Translations under genes and position numbers: made by a program | Part shown: positions 14,365-43,709 of the stretch, one piece after another | Numbering within the stretch: position 1 is the stretch's first letter | How the letters are laid out: each line of letters opens with the position of its first letter | Origin: Candidatus Kapaibacterium sp. | GTDB lineage: Bacteria > Bacteroidota > Ignavibacteria > Kapaibacteriales > UBA2268 | DNA: 64,000 bases | Assembly (NCBI GenBank): GCA_963665665.1 | Contig: OY762428.1 | Span: 4,064,001 to 4,128,000, forward strand | Reading direction: 5' to 3' | The notes under the pieces: generated by a model | The model's input: the letters and a program-made list of their open reading frames with translations, nothing else | Told to the model about the DNA's origin: nothing | Database searches by the model: none

Positions 14365-14538
14365 TCAACTCAATTTTTTGATAATATTTCGGGCTAAAAT
14401 CTCATGAATTTCTTTATGTCTTGGAATCGGTTGAATGACTCCGGTTCTTTTATTTTTAAACCAATCATGTTTTCCACCATGCCGAACAAATTCACACCCA
14501 AGCTGCTGAAGAATTTTTATTAAATCCCTCCTTTTCAT
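14365..14538 (-). CDS. hicA: HicA family mRNA interferase toxin (57 aa, absent from the ORF track)
   Basis: Manual translation MKRRDLIKILQQLGCEFVRHGGKHDWFKNKRTGVIQPIPRHKEIHEILARNIIKKLS; ATGA overlap with hicB. Confidence 0.88.
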   Translation of the reverse strand: MKRRDLIKILQQLGCEFVRHGGKHDWFKNKRTGVIQPIPRHKEIHEILARNIIKKLS

Positions 14539-14726
14539 ACAATTTCTAAATCAATTGTATATCTTTTTCCGGGTATTTCTTCTTTTTCAATATCATGATA
14601 TATATCCTTAAGATTTTCCAGAAGTTCATCAAGAGAAATTCCCTGGGTCATATATTCAGGATAATCATTTAGATATCCAAGATAGAATTTGCCGTCCAGC
14701 CAATATGTTACAGATTTTTTTATCAT
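14535..14726 (-). CDS. hicB: Short HicB family antitoxin
   Basis: YLGYLNDYPEYMTQGISLDELLENLKD; directly upstream of hicA. Confidence 0.85.
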   Translation of the reverse strand: MIKKSVTYWLDGKFYLGYLNDYPEYMTQGISLDELLENLKDIYHDIEKEEIPGKRYTIDLEIV

Positions 14727-14807
14727 TTTTTTCCTGTCACATTCTATCAATTAAAACGAAAAAAACAGTAATTATTTTAGAATTTAAAACAATTGCTTTA
14801 TCAAGGC

Positions 14808-16545: not shown

Positions 16546-17949
16546 TTATTCAACTATCAGCTTACGAATGCAAACACTTGATTCGCAAGAAATTTCAATA
16601 TGATAGGTACCGGATGATAATTTACCGGCCGGGATTGATATATTGTTTTCAGTTGTAACTAATTCCATCAATATTTTTCCATTTATATCAATTACTTTTA
16701 TAATTGATTTTTCAGATATATTGGAATTATCAATTCTTATGTTAAAATGTCCGGATTTTACCACGGGATTGGGATAAACTGTTGCTAAGTCAGGATTAAA
16801 AGTCTTTTCTACTGAACTTGTTCCGGGAGTGTATTCAATAATACCGTTTTTTGTGCCAAACAGGATTCTGCCGTCGTTTAGATTCTCAGTGGAATAAATA
16901 CCGGAAAAGTCAATCATCGGCCTTCCGGTTTTTGCGTTAACATCAATTGAATAAGTATCTTCATAATCATAATAATACAGGCCGTCGTGAAATTTTACAA
17001 GAAATATACCGTCGTCAGCGTTTATCGCCATGTTATCAAAATATCTCATGGCAACATATCCCTCTTCTTCACCCGGAATAATCCATTCCCCGTCTTCGTA
17101 TTTAGCCAGATAACTCGGGGAAAAATTATAATTATCGCCCTGAATATGCTCGTAAAGTATCCACAGATTTCCGTCTTCATCGAAATCAACGCAGGCTGCA
17201 TCATGGAAATTAGTTTTATCCATGATAATTGGAAGGTCATGAACCAGTATCGTATCCCCGCTTATCTGAAACAAGCCTCCGACAGCGCCTGTATCCTGAG
17301 TATTGTGGAAACTTGCACACCACAGGCTCCCGTCAGGCGCCAGCTTTATATTCGTATTGGAAAAGAATGCCACTCCCATATTACTCACTTCCTGCAGGCT
17401 GAATAAAATTTCGATTTCTTCTCCATTCCAGCGCAGGACTTCGCTGCCCATATTGTTATATATCTTTGTACCGCTATACTCGCCCTGGTAGGCAAGTATG
17501 GCACTTACAAAATAAATATTTCCTTCATTGTCTGCCTCTGCATAATCGGTTTCCCTTATTGCTGTATCGCCGGTAGGAGCTATCATTTTATGCCATTCCA
17601 CACCATCGTACATCATAAAATATTTTCCGGCCATGCAGCATATATTGCCGTTTTTATCTATTTCAGGGGCTGAAATAACAATTTTCGGATCAATATCCCA
17701 ATTGAACTGAGGCCTGGATATTCTCTCCCATTCAACACCCTGAAATTTTTCAATTGCATAGGAAGTTTCAAAACTACTCTGGCTGAACTCATTGGATAAA
17801 GCATAAATCGTTTCGTTATCTTCATCATAGAGTGTTGAAGTAATAGCAATACCGGAAGACTGGCCTATTTCCAGGAATTTCCATTCTTCAGCGTTCAAAA
17901 TACTAAATGAAAACAGGCAAACAATAATAGTCCATACTACGCAACGCAT
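16546..17949 (-). CDS. Secreted beta-propeller protein with T9SS C-terminal domain
   Basis: Signal peptide, DxxGNLW-type repeats, C-terminal VYPNP...DINGK...LSSGTY...KLIVE. Confidence 0.82.
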   Translation of the reverse strand: MRCVVWTIIVCLFSFSILNAEEWKFLEIGQSSGIAITSTLYDEDNETIYALSNEFSQSSFETSYAIEKFQGVEWERISRPQFNWDIDPKIVISAPEIDKNGNICCMAGKYFMMYDGVEWHKMIAPTGDTAIRETDYAEADNEGNIYFVSAILAYQGEYSGTKIYNNMGSEVLRWNGEEIEILFSLQEVSNMGVAFFSNTNIKLAPDGSLWCASFHNTQDTGAVGGLFQISGDTILVHDLPIIMDKTNFHDAACVDFDEDGNLWILYEHIQGDNYNFSPSYLAKYEDGEWIIPGEEEGYVAMRYFDNMAINADDGIFLVKFHDGLYYYDYEDTYSIDVNAKTGRPMIDFSGIYSTENLNDGRILFGTKNGIIEYTPGTSSVEKTFNPDLATVYPNPVVKSGHFNIRIDNSNISEKSIIKVIDINGKILMELVTTENNISIPAGKLSSGTYHIEISCESSVCIRKLIVE

Positions 17950-18338
17950 AATAAACCTCTTAAAGATAATTCATTGATCAAAAACTTTAGATAACTTACC
18001 CGGCTATTTTAATTTGGTTACAATTAAATATGATGAAATTTCGAAGATTGATCCATACCCTCCGGATGCATCAAGTGTTCAGATTTCGAAATAATATATT
18101 TTTAAGAATTCTTTATCATTTTGCTAATTGATTGTAAACCAACAGAATAAAAAAAAGCCGGAAAGGGCATTGTCCGACTTTATTTGTATTGGTTCTAATT
18201 CCAACAGTACCTAACAACTTGGCAGAGGGTACCTTTATTTCTTTTATAACCCGCCAATTGAAAAAAGGCTACAAAAAAAGTTATATTTTTACATTATTCT
18301 TGATAATTAAAATAAAATGCGATAAGAATTCCGGATCA

Positions 18339-18428
18339 ATTCCCCTTGAGGGATGGCCGAAGGCCGGGGGTGGAGTTGCGTAAAATTCCCCTCGTTGAGG
18401 GGTGGCGAGCGTAGCGAGACGGGGTGGA
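18339..18428. repeat. Two tandem REP-like elements, family B
   Basis: TTCCCCT..GAGGG.TGGC..(hairpin)..GGGGTGG twice; inverted copy at 49436-49476. Confidence 0.6.
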
Positions 18429-18465
18429 TTCTTATTCCGGTTGAAGTTATTATAGTTGCCGAAAG

Positions 18466-18556
18466 GTCATTCTGAGCGCCAGCGAAGAATCCATTCTTTT
18501 TTCATCAGCTACTAAGAAAGATGGATTCTTCAGTCGCTTCGCTCCGTCAGAATGAC
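18466..18556. repeat. REP-like palindromic element, family A
   Basis: GTCATTCTGAGCGCCAGCGAAGAATCCAT...ATGGATTCTTCAGTCGCTTCGCTCCGTCAGAATGAC. Confidence 0.8.
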
Positions 18557-18597
18557 AACATAATACTTCCTTCTCCGGCCCTTACCACCCGTTCTTC

Positions 18598-19176
18598 CAC
18601 CCCAATGAACCAACCGCCGGCCTTAATTCACCAACCTGTGGTTTCAATGAATCGAATATTTTCCTTAATTCAATGCTGTTTTGAACCAAAATCCTGATGT
18701 TTGGGCTAAATGCTTTGTTGGCAGGGCTTTATACTGCCTTGTCCGGAGGTATTGAAGCATTGTCCCGCCTTAATGTAATGAAATTCCGCCTCATTGTATG
18801 CTTGTTTAGCCTTATTGTTGCCTTGTTCCGCCTCATTGCTTGCTTGTTCCGCTTTACTGATGTCTTGTTCTGCTTCATTGCTCACTTGTTCCGCCTTACT
18901 GATGTCTTGTTCCGCTTTATTGCTTGCTTGTTTGGCTTCATTGATGTCTTGTTCTACTTCATTGCTTGCTTGTTCTGCCTTATTGAAGTCTTGTTCCGCC
19001 TCATTGCTTGCTTGTTCTGCCTCATTGATGTCTTGTTCCGCCTCAATGCATGCTTGTTTTACCTCATTGCTTGCTTGTTTGGCCTCGTTGATGTCTTGTT
19101 CCGCCTCATTGTATGCTTGTTTAGCCTTATTGACGACTTGTTCTGTCTCATTGATTGCTTGTTTGGCATTGAAATC
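18598..19176 (-). repeat. Left 21-bp tandem array: 18 strong units at 18787-19164 plus degenerate in-register units to ~18600
   Basis: Minus-strand units such as GAACAAGCAAGCAATGAGGCG and GAACAAGACATCAATGAGGCA repeating every 21 bp. Confidence 0.92.
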
Positions 19177-19200
19177 CCGAAGGTAGAGATAAGAATAGTC

Positions 19201-19700
19201 TATAGATAGAACTGATAATCAAATATTCAATCTAAAATATTAAATATTATACTATTTGTATTAAATATATAGTATTTATAATTATTTATCTAATATATCC
19301 AAGCCTTGATATAGTTCATCTAACAAAACTTTTAATATGAATAACTAAATAAATTATATATATAATTAAATAATCAGTATATTTTATTAATTTAATTCTA
19401 TAAACTATTAAATATTAATTTCAACTTATTAATTAATCAGTATATCTAATTTGTTAGGTCAATTAAATATATACTTGGATACTCAATATATTTTATAAAA
19501 GAAGAAGAAGAATTTATAAGAAACAATGATTAATGTCTTGTATGAATTATTTATTTGATTAGTTATATTATTAATATTGTAAATCTATATGATTATTTAA
19601 TAATTTGATAAATATATTTATTACAAACGCTTAAATATTTACTAATTCTTATGATATATTTCATTATTCAAATATTATAAATAATTCAAACACTTAAATA
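19201..19700. other. Extremely AT-rich non-coding core
   Basis: Manual count of 68 G+C in 480 nt (19201-19680), about 14% GC; no ORF. Confidence 0.9.
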
Positions 19701-19705
19701 TTCCA

Positions 19706-20326
19706 GATTTCAACGCTACACAAGCAATCATTACCACCAAACAAGGCAGCAATAACTACAAACAAGGCAACAATTCCTCTGACCCCTCCCAAACCCTCCC
19801 CTAAGGAGAGGGCTTTGAAGAAGAATAAGGCAACAATGACTTCAAACAAGGCAGCAATATCTTCAAACATTGGTGCAATATTCCTGACCCCTCCCAAACC
19901 CTCCCCGAAGGAGAGGGCTTTGAAGAAGAATAAGGCAATAATGACTTCGAACAACGGTATTTTGCCTCCGACCAAAGCAACAATAGGTTAAACCTTCGGT
20001 GCAATAGCGTCGACCAAGGCAGCAATTCCTCTGACCCCTCCCAAACCCTCCCCGAAGGAGAGGGCTTTGAAGAAGAATAAGGCAATAATGACTTCGAACA
20101 ACGGTGCAATAGCGTCAACCATTGGTTCATTGCTTTCGACACTTCCTACCTCCCCCTGCCCACCTCCTTCGAAAGGAGGGGGAGTTAATTCTATGTTATT
20201 TAACTTCTTATCCCCTCCTAAAGTAGGAGGGGAATACAGGGGTGGTTTTCTTGCTTTGATTTGGAACAAAGCAGCAATATCATCAAACAACGGTGTATTG
20301 CTTCGGGACATGGCAGGAATATTTTA
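19706..20326 (+). repeat. Right 21-bp array with embedded REP-like palindromes
   Basis: Units RAACAAGGCAGCAATnnnnnn at 19718, 19739, 19760, 19823, 19844, 19865, 19928...20138, 20264, 20285, 20306; three CCCCTCCCAAACCCTCCCCGAAGGAGAGGG-type copies and one inverted pair at ~20148-20246. Confidence 0.88.
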
Positions 20327-20355
20327 TGATTATGAATAAATTACAACATACGAAT

Positions 20356-20383
20356 AAAAAGAGACGCAGTGTATTGCGTCTCT
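20356..20383 (-). terminator. Hairpin terminator (REP-like) downstream of the VOC gene
   Basis: AGAGACGCA-GTGTAT-TGCGTCTCT with an A-tract on the left, which is a U-tract on the minus strand. Confidence 0.65.
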
Positions 20384-20458
20384 ATAATGAAATCTCGTTG
20401 AAATAATATGGTGATTTCAGGTTATCTGAAGAAAAAAGCCGATATAATTAGCGTCTTA

Positions 20459-21232
20459 TTACTGAACCACGCCGAATGCCGCACCCTGAGGATCGCGAAC
20501 CACAACAAAGTAGCCGACGCCTTCGGCATGAGCTTTTGGCATGAGTATTTCTCCGCCACCGGCAGTTGCTTTTTCGATAAGCAAGTCAATATTATCTGTC
20601 TGGAAGTATGGCATCCAATGGGAAGGAATATCTTTGAGCATTTCGGGCATTATATACAGGCCGCCAACCATTTCTTCGCCAAGAAGGAAAGTGGTGTATT
20701 CCATATCGCCCATTTTTTCGGTTTTAGATGTCCATCCGAAAACTTTTTCCAGAGCAGGTATTGATTTTTCCGGTTCGTGGCTTCCGTGTTCGTTCCAGCA
20801 CATAGCGCCGGGTACGTTTTTCAGCATTGCTCCTGAGTAGTCTTTTGCCTGCCACAGCCCGACAACAGCACCTTCAGGATCCATCATCACAGCCATTCTT
20901 CCCTCGTTCCCAACGTTTGTAGGTTCCATATGGAAAATGCAACCGAATTCTTTAGCTTTGGCAGTAGTTTCATCGCAATTATCAACACTGACATACGGAA
21001 GCCAGTTCGGCGGGATATTCATTTTTTTCATTTCTTCGCAAATCGCATACAAAGCTCCAACGGGCTTGTCATCAAGATAAAGCATGGTGTAAACCATACC
21101 ATTTTGTTCGGGCATGTCTTTTGCCGTCCAGCCGAAAAGGTCTGCGTAAAATTTCTTTGCTCCGTCAGTATCGCTTGTTGCCAAATCCACCCAGCAGAAA
21201 ACGCCGTTTTTGTAATCTTTAATTTCTTCCAT
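20459..21232 (-). CDS. Two-domain VOC/glyoxalase protein (Rv0577/CFP32-like)
   Basis: GVFCWVDL, AKKFYADLFGW, WLPYVSV, DPEGAVVGLWQ and a repeated second domain; GGAG upstream of ATG 21232. Confidence 0.88.
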   Translation of the reverse strand: MEEIKDYKNGVFCWVDLATSDTDGAKKFYADLFGWTAKDMPEQNGMVYTMLYLDDKPVGALYAICEEMKKMNIPPNWLPYVSVDNCDETTAKAKEFGCIFHMEPTNVGNEGRMAVMMDPEGAVVGLWQAKDYSGAMLKNVPGAMCWNEHGSHEPEKSIPALEKVFGWTSKTEKMGDMEYTTFLLGEEMVGGLYIMPEMLKDIPSHWMPYFQTDNIDLLIEKATAGGGEILMPKAHAEGVGYFVVVRDPQGAAFGVVQ

Positions 21233-21361
21233 TATTTCTCCCAAAGTTAAAAAATTAAATATTTTGTTTATAACGATAATCATAAAAAAATAGTTCTGTT
21301 ATTTTTCAATGAGTATCTGGTTCAAATATAATAATGGAACTATGACAACAGAATGTCACAA

Positions 21362-23284
21362 TTATTTCGGGGATGAAAATTTTTCTGCAGGAAGTGTAAA
21401 AATGAAGTTTGAACCTTCACCGGGCTTACTTGTAACCCTGATATTGCCTCCGTTTTTCTCAACAAATTCTTTTGCCAGAATCAGCCCCAGTCCGGTACCT
21501 TTTTCGTTATTTGTTCCGGGAGTAGAAATGTTTTCATCAATCCTGAACAGTTTGTCAATAATATCTTTTTTCATACCAACACCTGTATCAAGAACGGAAA
21601 TTGTTACCATCTTTCCTGTTTCAGCAAAAGATTCCGAAGCATTTAGAATAATACTGCCGTTCACCGGGGTAAATTTTACAGCGTTGCTCAGCAGGTTTCT
21701 GAGAACGGTAATAATCATGTTCGAATCAAAGTAAGCACTGATACTATTATCAATTTTATTTTCAATAATAATATCCTTTTCAGCAATAACCACCGAAAGA
21801 CTGGAAACAACATTGTCAGCTATGAAACGAATATTTGTGATTTCCGGGTTGAATGGTATAACACCTCTTTGTGAGCGCGACCAGTTCAGAAGGTTTTCCA
21901 GAAGGGAATATACATTTTTCGCGGAAGTTTTCATCAGGTCTATCAATTCCATTCGCTCGTCTTTATTCATGTCATCGTAGCTTTTTTCAATATATTCGGC
22001 AAGGCTTACAAAACTGCCAATCGGGTTTTTCAGGTCATGGGCAATAATTGAGAAAAATTTATCTTTTGTTGCATTTGCTTCCAAAAGTTCCTGTTCTTTG
22101 TTGTGATAATCAGTATTGTCGTGAGCAATAAAAATAATTCTGTTTTCGGAAATATATCCAACTTTTGCACGGAACCAGAAATTTTTATTTCCAACGGCAA
22201 GTGGGTAATCTATTACAACCTGATTTTTAGTTTCATAGCATTTTCTGATAGCATTGTGGAAGAGCTCGGCTTTGTCCTTCGGGAAAATTTCATAAACACT
22301 TTTGCCAAGCATCTCATTTCTGGGTTTGAATAACAGGTTTTCATTTGCCGGAGCAATATTTGTGTAAACAGCATCGGGATTGAATTCAATAACCAGGTCG
22401 TTCATGGAAAAGAATAATCCTTTAAGCTCATTTTCATTTTCGCGTATTTTCAATATAGCCCTGATGAGCTGCCAGATCAGAATGCTGATTATCAAAGATG
22501 CAGCAAGAAGGGAATATTTCATGATAGAGAAATTTGTTATTCCCTGATCCCAGCCGTTTACAGGCACAGCTGATAGTACCCAGCTTCCGGTTGGCAACTG
22601 GATTTTAACTGAAATGGGTTCAAGTGAATTGATTCTGGTATCTCCCCAGAAAATACTGCCATAATCACCTTTTCCGTCTTCACCTTTGATTGAAAAATAC
22701 AGGCCATCTTTTTCAGGGAATAATCCTGCCTCACGGAAAAGCTGATCTCTTTTGATAACAATATCTGTCATTCCCCAAAAAGGCTTTCTAACTGAATCCG
22801 TGGCAATAAATATCGGTGTATATGAAATAAAGGCTATACCACCTTCAACAAGTTCAACGGGTCCGGCAACGAATGTCAGGCCGGTTGTAATAGTGTTTTC
22901 AACAATTTCACGCCTTTGGGGATGATCAAGTAAATCGAGCCCGATAGCTTCTTCGTGCCCTTTATATGGGAATATCATGCTGATCCTGCAATCTTTAGCA
23001 ATGGATATGGTAGATATTACTGAATCCCCGGATATCATATTTCCGGCCATCATTGTGAACTCTTCATCGCTGATCTCAGGTTTCATTGAAACATAAGAGG
23101 CTACGCCTTTGGTATAATAAATCCTTGAATAAAGGGCCTTTTCAAGAGCAGACTTTTTTGAAACCAATATATCGGTAACATGCGACTTGAAACTTTTCTC
23201 TGATTTCGACACTGAATATTGATGATATTTATAGATTAATACTGAAGCTGTAACAAAAAATAGTATAGCAACAAATAGTGGCAA
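21362..23284 (-). CDS. Sensor histidine kinase (CHASE-PAS-HisKA-HATPase)
   Basis: VAGPVELVEGG CHASE motif, IIAHDLKNP H-box, NLLSNAVKFT, DTGVG, GTGLGL. Confidence 0.9.
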   Translation of the reverse strand: MPLFVAILFFVTASVLIYKYHQYSVSKSEKSFKSHVTDILVSKKSALEKALYSRIYYTKGVASYVSMKPEISDEEFTMMAGNMISGDSVISTISIAKDCRISMIFPYKGHEEAIGLDLLDHPQRREIVENTITTGLTFVAGPVELVEGGIAFISYTPIFIATDSVRKPFWGMTDIVIKRDQLFREAGLFPEKDGLYFSIKGEDGKGDYGSIFWGDTRINSLEPISVKIQLPTGSWVLSAVPVNGWDQGITNFSIMKYSLLAASLIISILIWQLIRAILKIRENENELKGLFFSMNDLVIEFNPDAVYTNIAPANENLLFKPRNEMLGKSVYEIFPKDKAELFHNAIRKCYETKNQVVIDYPLAVGNKNFWFRAKVGYISENRIIFIAHDNTDYHNKEQELLEANATKDKFFSIIAHDLKNPIGSFVSLAEYIEKSYDDMNKDERMELIDLMKTSAKNVYSLLENLLNWSRSQRGVIPFNPEITNIRFIADNVVSSLSVVIAEKDIIIENKIDNSISAYFDSNMIITVLRNLLSNAVKFTPVNGSIILNASESFAETGKMVTISVLDTGVGMKKDIIDKLFRIDENISTPGTNNEKGTGLGLILAKEFVEKNGGNIRVTSKPGEGSNFIFTLPAEKFSSPK

Positions 23285-43667: not shown

Positions 43668-43709
43668 AATTTTTTTATAAATTAAATCAATTTTTTTATA
43701 AATTAAATC
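43668..43709. repeat. Perfect 21-bp direct repeat, two copies, in a divergent promoter region
   Basis: AATTTTTTTATAAATTAAATC twice in tandem. Confidence 0.8.

Follow-up and report, generated by a model that had tools for sequence, protein, structure and literature searches.

Dispersed intergenic repeats of bacteria, such as repetitive extragenic palindromic (REP) sequences, bacterial interspersed mosaic elements (BIMEs) and miniature inverted-repeat transposable elements (MITEs), are usually short palindromes, and REP units in particular are palindromes of 20–40 bp that are found singly or in doublets. Phased repeats are also known from iteron origins and parC/sopC-type centromeres, which occur as a single site per replicon, adjoin rep or par genes and contain 3–12 repeats. 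In the eukaryotic Foldback/Galileo elements, internally repetitive inverted repeats are thought to work as multiple protein-binding sites. The closest described element, likened here by description only, is BrickBuilt of Porphyromonas gingivalis, a minisatellite-bearing MITE reported to have a 23-nt spacer-less tandem repeat and 19 copies that are always intergenic (Klein et al. 2015; PMC4596501). Here, an element of Candidatus Kapaibacterium sp. is described, which occupies positions 18598–20326 of a 64,000-nt window (the whole stretch analysed, nucleotides 4064001–4128000 of a single-contig genome of 5.46 Mb and 38.6 % GC; positions below refer to the window unless assigned to the genome). 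The element consists of two arrays of 21-bp units facing outward from an AT-rich middle, and with a probability of roughly 0.55 it belongs to a non-coding mosaic repeat that is specific to this lineage, present in many copies and dispersed as a unit.

Within the window, the strict unit RAACAAGNNNNCAAT has 17 matches where 0.13 were expected, a number reached by none of 100 dinucleotide-preserving shuffles. All 17 lie inside the element in a single 21-bp register, on the minus strand in the left arm (14 matches, 18793–19164) and on the plus strand in the right arm (three matches, 19739–19858), and the symmetric outward-facing arrays announced in the preliminary description are therefore real. 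Tandem Repeats Finder reports period 21 (18.1 copies) as well as period 42 at 18784–19163, together with a 105-bp higher-order repeat at 19738–19954, in the right arm. The left arm comprises 27 lattice positions, of which 18 contiguous units (18787–19164, minus strand, consensus GAACAAGnnAGCAATGAGGCG) carry at most one mismatch, while the outer nine (18598–18786) are degenerate, with 2–7 mismatches. The right arm (19718–20326, plus strand) has 29 positions, with at most one mismatch in seven and at most two in 12, and 12 positions are taken by palindromes inserted exactly in phase, namely three copies of a 42-bp palindrome, REP1 (19781–19822, 19886–19927 and 20033–20074; six positions), and a GC-rich hairpin pair that, in the position-by-position layout, fills exactly six positions (20138–20263, 126 bp). 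The two arms had been thought to share one degenerate unit, but they belong to different unit types, referred to below as X (left, with EQASNEA-type heptads in the outward frame) and Y (right, with KQGSN/DQGIN-type units).

The element is not unique, its array–centre–array layout being found at 53 paired loci. Genome-wide, the strict unit occurs 469 times against about 10 occurrences expected from composition (about five per strand), and a position weight matrix built from these matches, and thus fitted to the family, returned 516 plus-strand and 594 minus-strand units scoring above 16, compared with five in the reversed genome. Chaining of these units gave 57 plus-strand and 56 minus-strand arrays. 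A minus-strand array followed by a plus-strand array within 800 bp, the only kind of pairing sought, defined the 53 outward-facing loci, whose summed span is 53,887 bp, and merging brought the total to 55 loci. Three further arrays that lack a partner or lie far from it proved to be ordinary copies as well, two of them hit by an insertion sequence (IS) and one having a low-scoring arm. The inter-arm distance equals 7 modulo 21 in all 53 pairs and is 28 bp in 25 loci, 49 bp in eight, and 70, 91, 112 and 217 bp in one each, followed by longer distances of 553 (four loci), 574 (nine), 595 (one) and 700 bp (two). The arms thus abut at a short centre in 37 loci, while an AT-rich middle of 553–700 bp separates them in 16, including the window copy; the short centres are GAACATGTTC in 26 loci, of TAATGAGTAAC type in eight and a TGATTATAATCA-type palindrome in three. 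Arm length ranges from 3 to 76 units and differs between copies by 21-bp steps. The preliminary description had set a scattered family without inverted geometry against its own interpretation; the scatter was found, but the inverted geometry is constant throughout the family. Likewise, the layout recurs in a genome scan with the 21-bp profile, but a co-occurring gene family was not found, as no neighbouring gene family is shared with the other 52 loci.

The middle of the window copy (19165–19717, about 26 WATATTTAATA-type 21-mer units) has a GC fraction of 0.14–0.16 across 19200–19700, with 102 G+C in the 574 nt of 19165–19738; its AT-richness was described correctly, except that the lowest-GC stretch of 480 nt, starting at 19221, holds 66 G+C rather than the 68 originally given. 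Averaged over 14 copies, the self-identity of the middle at lags of 21, 42 and 63 is 0.49, 0.47 and 0.47, respectively, against about 0.36 elsewhere. The WATATTTAATA-type unit keeps the register of the arms and switches strand between the left half (minus) and the right half (plus), with a dyad near 19388 according to the mirrored landmark units. The period, phase and mirroring of the middle therefore make 18598–20326 one mirrored 21-bp lattice, whose composition shifts from the middle outward; the middle is not a foreign insert, nor is it the separate core that it had been taken for, because its AT-rich 21-bp units continue the phase of the arms. The 16 AT-rich middles of the genome are homologous to each other, with the one at 4.99 Mb aligning poorly, and are always oriented in the same way with respect to X and Y. 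The 574-bp middle of the window has 13 other near-full-length copies of 88–91 % identity (14 candidates scored), and comparison with 40 related genomes gave only short AT-rich chance matches. The AT-rich middle is a subfamily-specific stretch of the lattice and not an origin unwinding element. Its RNA folds no better than shuffles on either strand (z −0.19 and −0.45), and every reading frame of the AT-rich lattice is closed. The possibility that the middle is a hypermutated, deaminated array was rejected, as the stacked rows reveal an AT-rich unit that is not derived from the arm unit by transitions.

The polarity of the element becomes apparent from its outer parts. The X arm is defined by a conserved outward end, ...NEAKFHY(I/N)KAKQ in the heptad frame, and the other arm is designated Y. 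Of the 53 loci, 41 have exactly one conserved X end (left in 20, right in 21), none has a second one, and 12 lack it altogether, owing to truncation or early stops. The X units form five subfamilies, NQVFSKV, KQVLSKA, KQAWDEV, NQAVSKV and, in the copies with an AT-rich core, EQASNEA, while Y arms contain DQGINDF/KQGSNNS-type units plus conserved variant units. Past the X array, a degenerate but alignable lattice of about 225 nt is found at all 41 X ends (18557–18786 in the window, minus strand), followed by chains of REP-type palindromes (18386–18556, including a palindrome of about 90 bp at 18466–18556). A 40-nt piece of the X tail has 45 copies in the genome, every one of which adjoins arrays. 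The consensus RNA fold of 39 distinct X tails is weak (−12.8 and −6.4 kcal/mol), with four pairs per strand being compensatory by a lenient test, mostly via G–U intermediates.

The accessory palindromes are similarly tied to the arrays. REP1 has 76 of its 98 strand-wise genome matches in or near arrays, in constant orientation to the array. Four REP-type modules, among them two X-side types and the conserved hairpin pair of the Y end, have 61/84, 49/60, 36/68 and 64/69 of their genome copies within 1.2 kb of arrays (X-side types, 49/60 and 36/68; hairpin pair, 64/69), and the array-adjacent zones in which they concentrate amount to a few per cent of the genome. The REP3 module lies on the X side and often again past the Y end, in constant orientation to the X-to-Y direction, and the two REP3 copies of one element are direct rather than inverted repeats in all copies having both. 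This direct orientation, together with the difference between X and Y, indicates that the composite is polar and not a simple palindrome. In at least five loci, the Y-arm hairpin-pair palindrome contains near-identical copies of one IS (ORF [open reading frame] of 308–370 aa, MEKYNK...; near 997182–998294, 2209988–2211100 and 2483304–2484416 of the genome, L069:1933–2859 and L070:1858–2685), which appears to target this palindrome; the 308-aa reading of its ORF has no Pfam match.

All 53 loci are intergenic. According to a crude, ORF-based gene set (3387 ORFs of at least 150 aa, after removal of array-derived and nested frames), 20 of them lie between convergent, 26 between tandem and seven between divergent genes, compared with 15 % convergent (522/3386), 69 % tandem and 15 % divergent gaps genome-wide, and the excess in convergent gaps is significant (p = 6e-5). 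No gene orientation preference was detected at either element end across the 53 loci. Identical IS transposases lie next to a few of the loci, and paralogous genes next to some. The neighbours of the window copy encode a cargo protein with a type IX secretion system (T9SS) tail, two glyoxalase-fold proteins and a histidine kinase; in agreement with the preliminary description, none of the neighbours in the window is a Rep, Par, Cas, integrase or transposase gene.

The family is apparently non-coding and has been found only in this genome. A two-unit pattern has 809 matches in the genome itself, one match in one of 40 relatives (genomes of the same family and order) and none in the other 39. 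No arrays were found in 185,579 species genomes (one genome each, with records of the present genome possibly left out), in which 26 stretches contained a single chance match; such scans require exact motifs and could miss diverged relatives. In metagenome contigs, an exact 26-mer of the AT-rich middle had no matches, while a three-unit pattern was found in 16 contigs, 13 with one match, one with two and two with six. The last two (L062:560–1100 and L066:1880–2300) were rejected as relatives, one after inspection in full and the other by its ORF translations: both contain a one-directional 21-bp satellite of a different unit, TTTAACAAGAACACAATACAG, which shares the AACAAG...CAAT spacing by chance and has neither mirrored arms nor tails. 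Short-read contigs from four runs in two studies, compared with 17800–21300, stop at 18410 and 20240 without any of them bridging the element, while locus-specific inner pieces match these contigs with 0–1 differences. The flanks are identical in one study, which may include the source sample, and about 1.3 % divergent in the other; given the near-identity of the inner pieces despite this divergence, the copy is common to two strains.

Among described systems, BrickBuilt, by its description, resembles the present family in several respects: a tandem unit of about two helical turns without spacers (23 nt in BrickBuilt, 21 bp in the present family), leader and tail pieces that are conserved and not part of the repeat (in the present family, the X tail and the Y-end hairpin pair), tens of copies that are always intergenic (19 and about 55, respectively) and confinement to one species or lineage of the Bacteroidota–Chlorobi group. 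However, in that description BrickBuilt has one array between small inverted ends, whereas here two unlike arrays extend outward from a dyad, about a third of the copies include an AT-rich stretch of the same lattice, and the ends sit in chains of REP-type palindromes.

By architecture, the closest analogues would be the Foldback/Galileo elements, with which the family shares two long inverted arms of short tandem sub-repeats and variable length, a middle ranging from almost nothing to several hundred bp, mostly geneless copies and sub-repeats of the kind regarded as protein-binding sites. In contrast to Foldback/Galileo, which is eukaryotic and for which no bacterial counterpart was found in the literature searched, the arms here are inverted only approximately, at the level of the unit, fold-back appears weak, none of the copies encodes a transposase and target duplications were not seen. 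The proteobacterial REP sequences, BIMEs and REP doublets forming hairpins (REPINs) are likewise dispersed, intergenic, enriched at gene 3′ ends and organised as mosaic chains of small palindromes in fixed order, and a Y1-transposase (RAYT/IS200-like) gene exists in this genome as well (genome positions 1821817–1822161, 1.82 Mb). Here, however, non-palindromic 21-bp arrays of 3–76 units per arm make up the bulk of the element, and the REP-like modules are accessory. In line with the preliminary description, no named element was matched in Rfam, Pfam, NCBIfam or the literature searched, and a search of 17500–21500 against Rfam at E values up to 1 returned only two matches, far below gathering scores.

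The most economical account of these observations is a non-coding mosaic repeat with arrays that vary in steps of 21 bp. The element would have been dispersed through the genome as a unit, since different loci have position-specific unit variants, tails and accessory palindromes in common. Its arrays would then lengthen or shorten by replication slippage or unequal recombination, and copies would persist where 3′–3′ intergenic sites tolerate them. The phased units, which span two helical turns and show a 10.5-bp AT/GC alternation, may serve as repeated binding or bending sites for a putative protein that moves or maintains the element, in the manner proposed for the inverted repeats of Foldback/Galileo. 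The occurrence of REP3–REP2 modules in direct orientation on both sides would fit the integration of a circle by recombination at a module of this type, although this is speculation.

Several observations weigh against dispersal as a non-coding unit. Mobility is inferred only: no target-site duplication, empty site or autonomous copy was found among the family loci, the element ends are buried in REP chains in which no duplication was recognised, and the only coding insertions between or in the arms are unrelated IS copies. Candidates for an autonomous parent were rejected, since a locus whose arms lie 1.6 kb apart and one of two single arrays proved to be ordinary copies hit by an IS, while the other single array is an ordinary copy with a low-scoring X arm. 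The boundaries of a mobile unit could not be taken from the most similar locus pair either, the only near-identical one, which represents a segmental duplication extending past the element into non-repeat sequence. Fold-back pairing appears weak because the X and Y unit types differ, the single-stranded DNA fold of one copy being only modestly more stable than 20 shuffles (−69.1 versus −54.4 kcal/mol, z −3.56), and the flanking REP3 modules are direct rather than inverted. On the coding side, GGAGG stands 8 nt before a heptad-frame ATG in all 26 GAACATGTTC centres, at the distance used by the genes of this genome. Moreover, each of the five X subfamilies reads outward as a clean a/d coiled-coil heptad, and X copies end this frame at a single position, some with TAG and others with TGA. 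Two complete elements stand in direct tandem at 1775380–1777538 of the genome (1.775 and 1.777 Mb, about 1.4 kb apart); the 5346 bp over which their surroundings overlap are 100 % identical, and the pair is therefore a recent tandem duplication of the whole element and its flanks.

It is possible, though unlikely, that the X arm is in fact a gene, in which case the family would encode about 40 paralogous coiled-coil proteins of roughly 90–140 residues with perfect heptads and length steps of seven codons. The Y arm would then be an upstream leader or a second divergent ORF sharing the palindromic CATG start, and the window copy a start-less relic or variant. Besides the GGAGG–ATG arrangement and the alternative use of TAG and TGA at the same stop position, this explanation is favoured by a frame that runs from the centre to the conserved ...FHY(I/N)KAKQ end in 41 loci, by hydrophobic a/d and polar b/c/e/f positions without Pro or Gly in the five subfamilies, and by the REP hairpins that follow the frame in the manner of 3′ stabilisers or terminators. 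Bacteroidota usually make less use of Shine–Dalgarno pairing; in this genome, Shine–Dalgarno-like 4-mers precede about 33 % of the ORFs that begin with ATG and encode at least 150 aa, at −18 to −4, with a peak at −12 to −9, against a background of 10 % inside genes, and this lineage thus uses such pairing more than is usual for the group.

The pattern of variation, on the other hand, speaks against a gene. In the 41 loci with an identifiable X end, to which the entropy and stop counts were restricted (12 loci were dropped), the mean entropies of the three codon positions are 0.51/0.67/0.68 in the X units of class A (397 units), 0.66/0.85/0.82 in those of class B (138 units) and 1.28/1.24/1.17 in the Y units (803 units), so that the units vary without 3-base periodicity. 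In X arms, the heptad frame s0 is no more open than frames s1 and a0; in 33 class-A X arms each of two other frames has no stops, compared with 10 in the heptad frame, most of which are taken to be natural stops. Nor is the stop fixed, as about 10 X copies read 17 codons beyond the usual one. The heptad frames of class-B X arms, including that of the window, contain no ATG, GTG or TTG start; the window X frame (18706–19218) extends over 170 codons from stop to stop. Room for a promoter exists solely inside the opposite arm. Y arms have stops in all frames (42–83 in four frames and 549–581 in the other two), the Y lattice runs past the in-frame TAA carried by each 42-bp palindrome, and the outward frame of the window Y arm stops after 39 codons. 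An inward ORF at 18697–19209 (170 aa, ATG) was rejected as a candidate gene: it has no Pfam or NCBIfam match, and a TAA closes its frame in the consensus of the other copies.

The X frames match generic coiled-coil profiles of dozens of unrelated families alike, and one class-A copy reaches 33.2 bits against a cut-off of 23.1 for Pfam Alanine_zipper, but the X arm of the window falls below every curated cut-off in Pfam and NCBIfam. The X outward frame resembles coiled-coil lipoproteins with heptad repeats (Lpp/OprI alanine zipper; PF11839, NF040598) in its a/d heptad and in scoring on these profiles; it differs in having no signal peptide or lipobox, and the match is compositional. Among 5.8 billion proteins, the search for homologues gave one weak match of 130 aa, which shares the repeat only, while longer proteins gave no match. 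At 796, the recognition score in the ESM Atlas is low, as about nine in ten proteins of known families score at least 2300. The 130-aa protein, P0001, is encoded on a 1.05-Mb ENA contig and has ten KANQVFS/KANHVFS heptads between unrelated ends; it may be a family relative in another organism or a chance repeat.

An extended form of the mobile-element account, which is doubtful at present, would make the family a bacterial counterpart of the foldback elements: geneless mobile DNA whose lattice is cooperatively bound or wrapped by a putative lineage-specific protein, with the AT-rich lattice of the 16 copies acting as a melting or entry point and the lattice of the abutting-arm copies doubling as a shared palindromic CATG start for a heptad micro-protein.

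A host cis-acting platform is quite improbable. In this scheme, bent or wrapped phased units would be bound by a nucleoid-associated protein, gyrase or a condensin-type loader at about 55 places, and analogous roles have been proposed for the BIMEs of E. coli. The 21-bp phase, exact through arms, core, tails and inserted palindromes, would suit such a function, as would the distribution of copies over the whole chromosome and the strong 10.5-bp signal of WW and SS dinucleotides (W, A or T; S, G or C) in both arms. At 10.5 bp, the left arm has a WW power of 22.6 and an SS power of 40.5, and the right arm 17.6 and 11.5, compared with 2.4 and 17.4 (left) and 6.0 and 2.5 (right) at 21 bp. However, the AT-rich core lacks the 10.5-bp signal, and a coiled-coil coding sequence gives the same periodicity; an AT/GC alternation of 10.5 bp fits bent DNA and an amphipathic helix alike and decides nothing. 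Furthermore, the spacing of the loci is no more regular than random (coefficient of variation 0.94 versus 0.98 ± 0.12), and the X strand follows the direction of replication only weakly (25 of 41 loci, p = 0.21). Finally, the family was not found in the 40 relatives, and therefore no conserved host machinery can depend on it.

Even less probable is that the centre, above all the class-B AT-rich lattice, functions as a bidirectional promoter for two repeat RNAs, which could act, for example, as sponges for RNA-binding proteins. The AT-rich middle contains many −10-like hexamers, and GC-rich hairpins at the outer ends could terminate such RNAs; BrickBuilt is also reported to be bidirectionally promoter-active (PMC4596501). 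However, the 13 promoter-like sites in 18000–20800 do not exceed the number in shuffles (10.0, standard deviation 3.2), and the AT-rich middle is absent from 37 of the 53 copies. There is no substantial Rfam match, and neither the folding of the core, which is no better than that of shuffles, nor the X tails provide a supported RNA structure.

An iteron-type origin or plasmid-type partition centromere, the leading idea of the preliminary description, can practically be set aside: it was suggested by phased repeats of about two helical turns, arranged in two sets around an AT-rich or promoter-like region, but there are 53 paired loci, 16 of them with an AT-rich middle, up to 76 units per arm, and no rep, par or dnaA genes beside the window element or any other copy. 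In particular, no parA/parB or parM/parR genes flank the window element, and no DnaA box (TTATCCACA, at most one mismatch) is found in 18598–20326. The cumulative GC skew, proposed earlier as a test for an origin or terminus, has its minimum at 1.73 Mb and its maximum at 5.11 Mb, and dnaA lies at 1.55 Mb, while the element, at 4.08 Mb, is 2.3–2.5 Mb away from dnaA and the skew minimum and shows no local skew inflection. With about 55 intergenic copies, the element is not a replication origin or centromere, and of the earlier interpretation as a whole the phased outward geometry stands, whereas the dedicated origin- or centromere-like site does not.

Two other features of the window were noted. 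At 14365–14750 on the minus strand, a gene for a HicA toxin (57 aa, Pfam HicA_toxin 52.7 bits) adjoins one for a 71-aa protein, which has no Pfam match and, judging from its position, is probably the HicB antitoxin. At 43668–43709 there is a perfect two-copy AT-rich tandem repeat of 21 bp (AATTTTTTTATAAATTAAATC), the sequence of which is unrelated to the family.

The dispersed, apparently non-coding repeat family described here amounts to about 54 kb, or roughly 1 % of the genome, and is built throughout on a single mirrored lattice of 21 bp, an architecture that was not found described for prokaryotes in the literature searched. The phase of the lattice is kept across arms, middle, tails and even inserted palindromes. 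For annotation, the family calls for caution, because X arrays of class A, in contrast to class B, leave four of six frames open and gene callers will emit long spurious hypothetical proteins from them; the same is true of assembly, as the edges of the element break short-read contigs. Nor is the iteron-like appearance of repeats around an AT-rich core, taken alone, a sign of an origin. Should the lattice prove to be a protein-binding scaffold or a micro-protein gene family, it would offer a tractable case of the birth and spread of repeats and palindromes in a bacterial genome.

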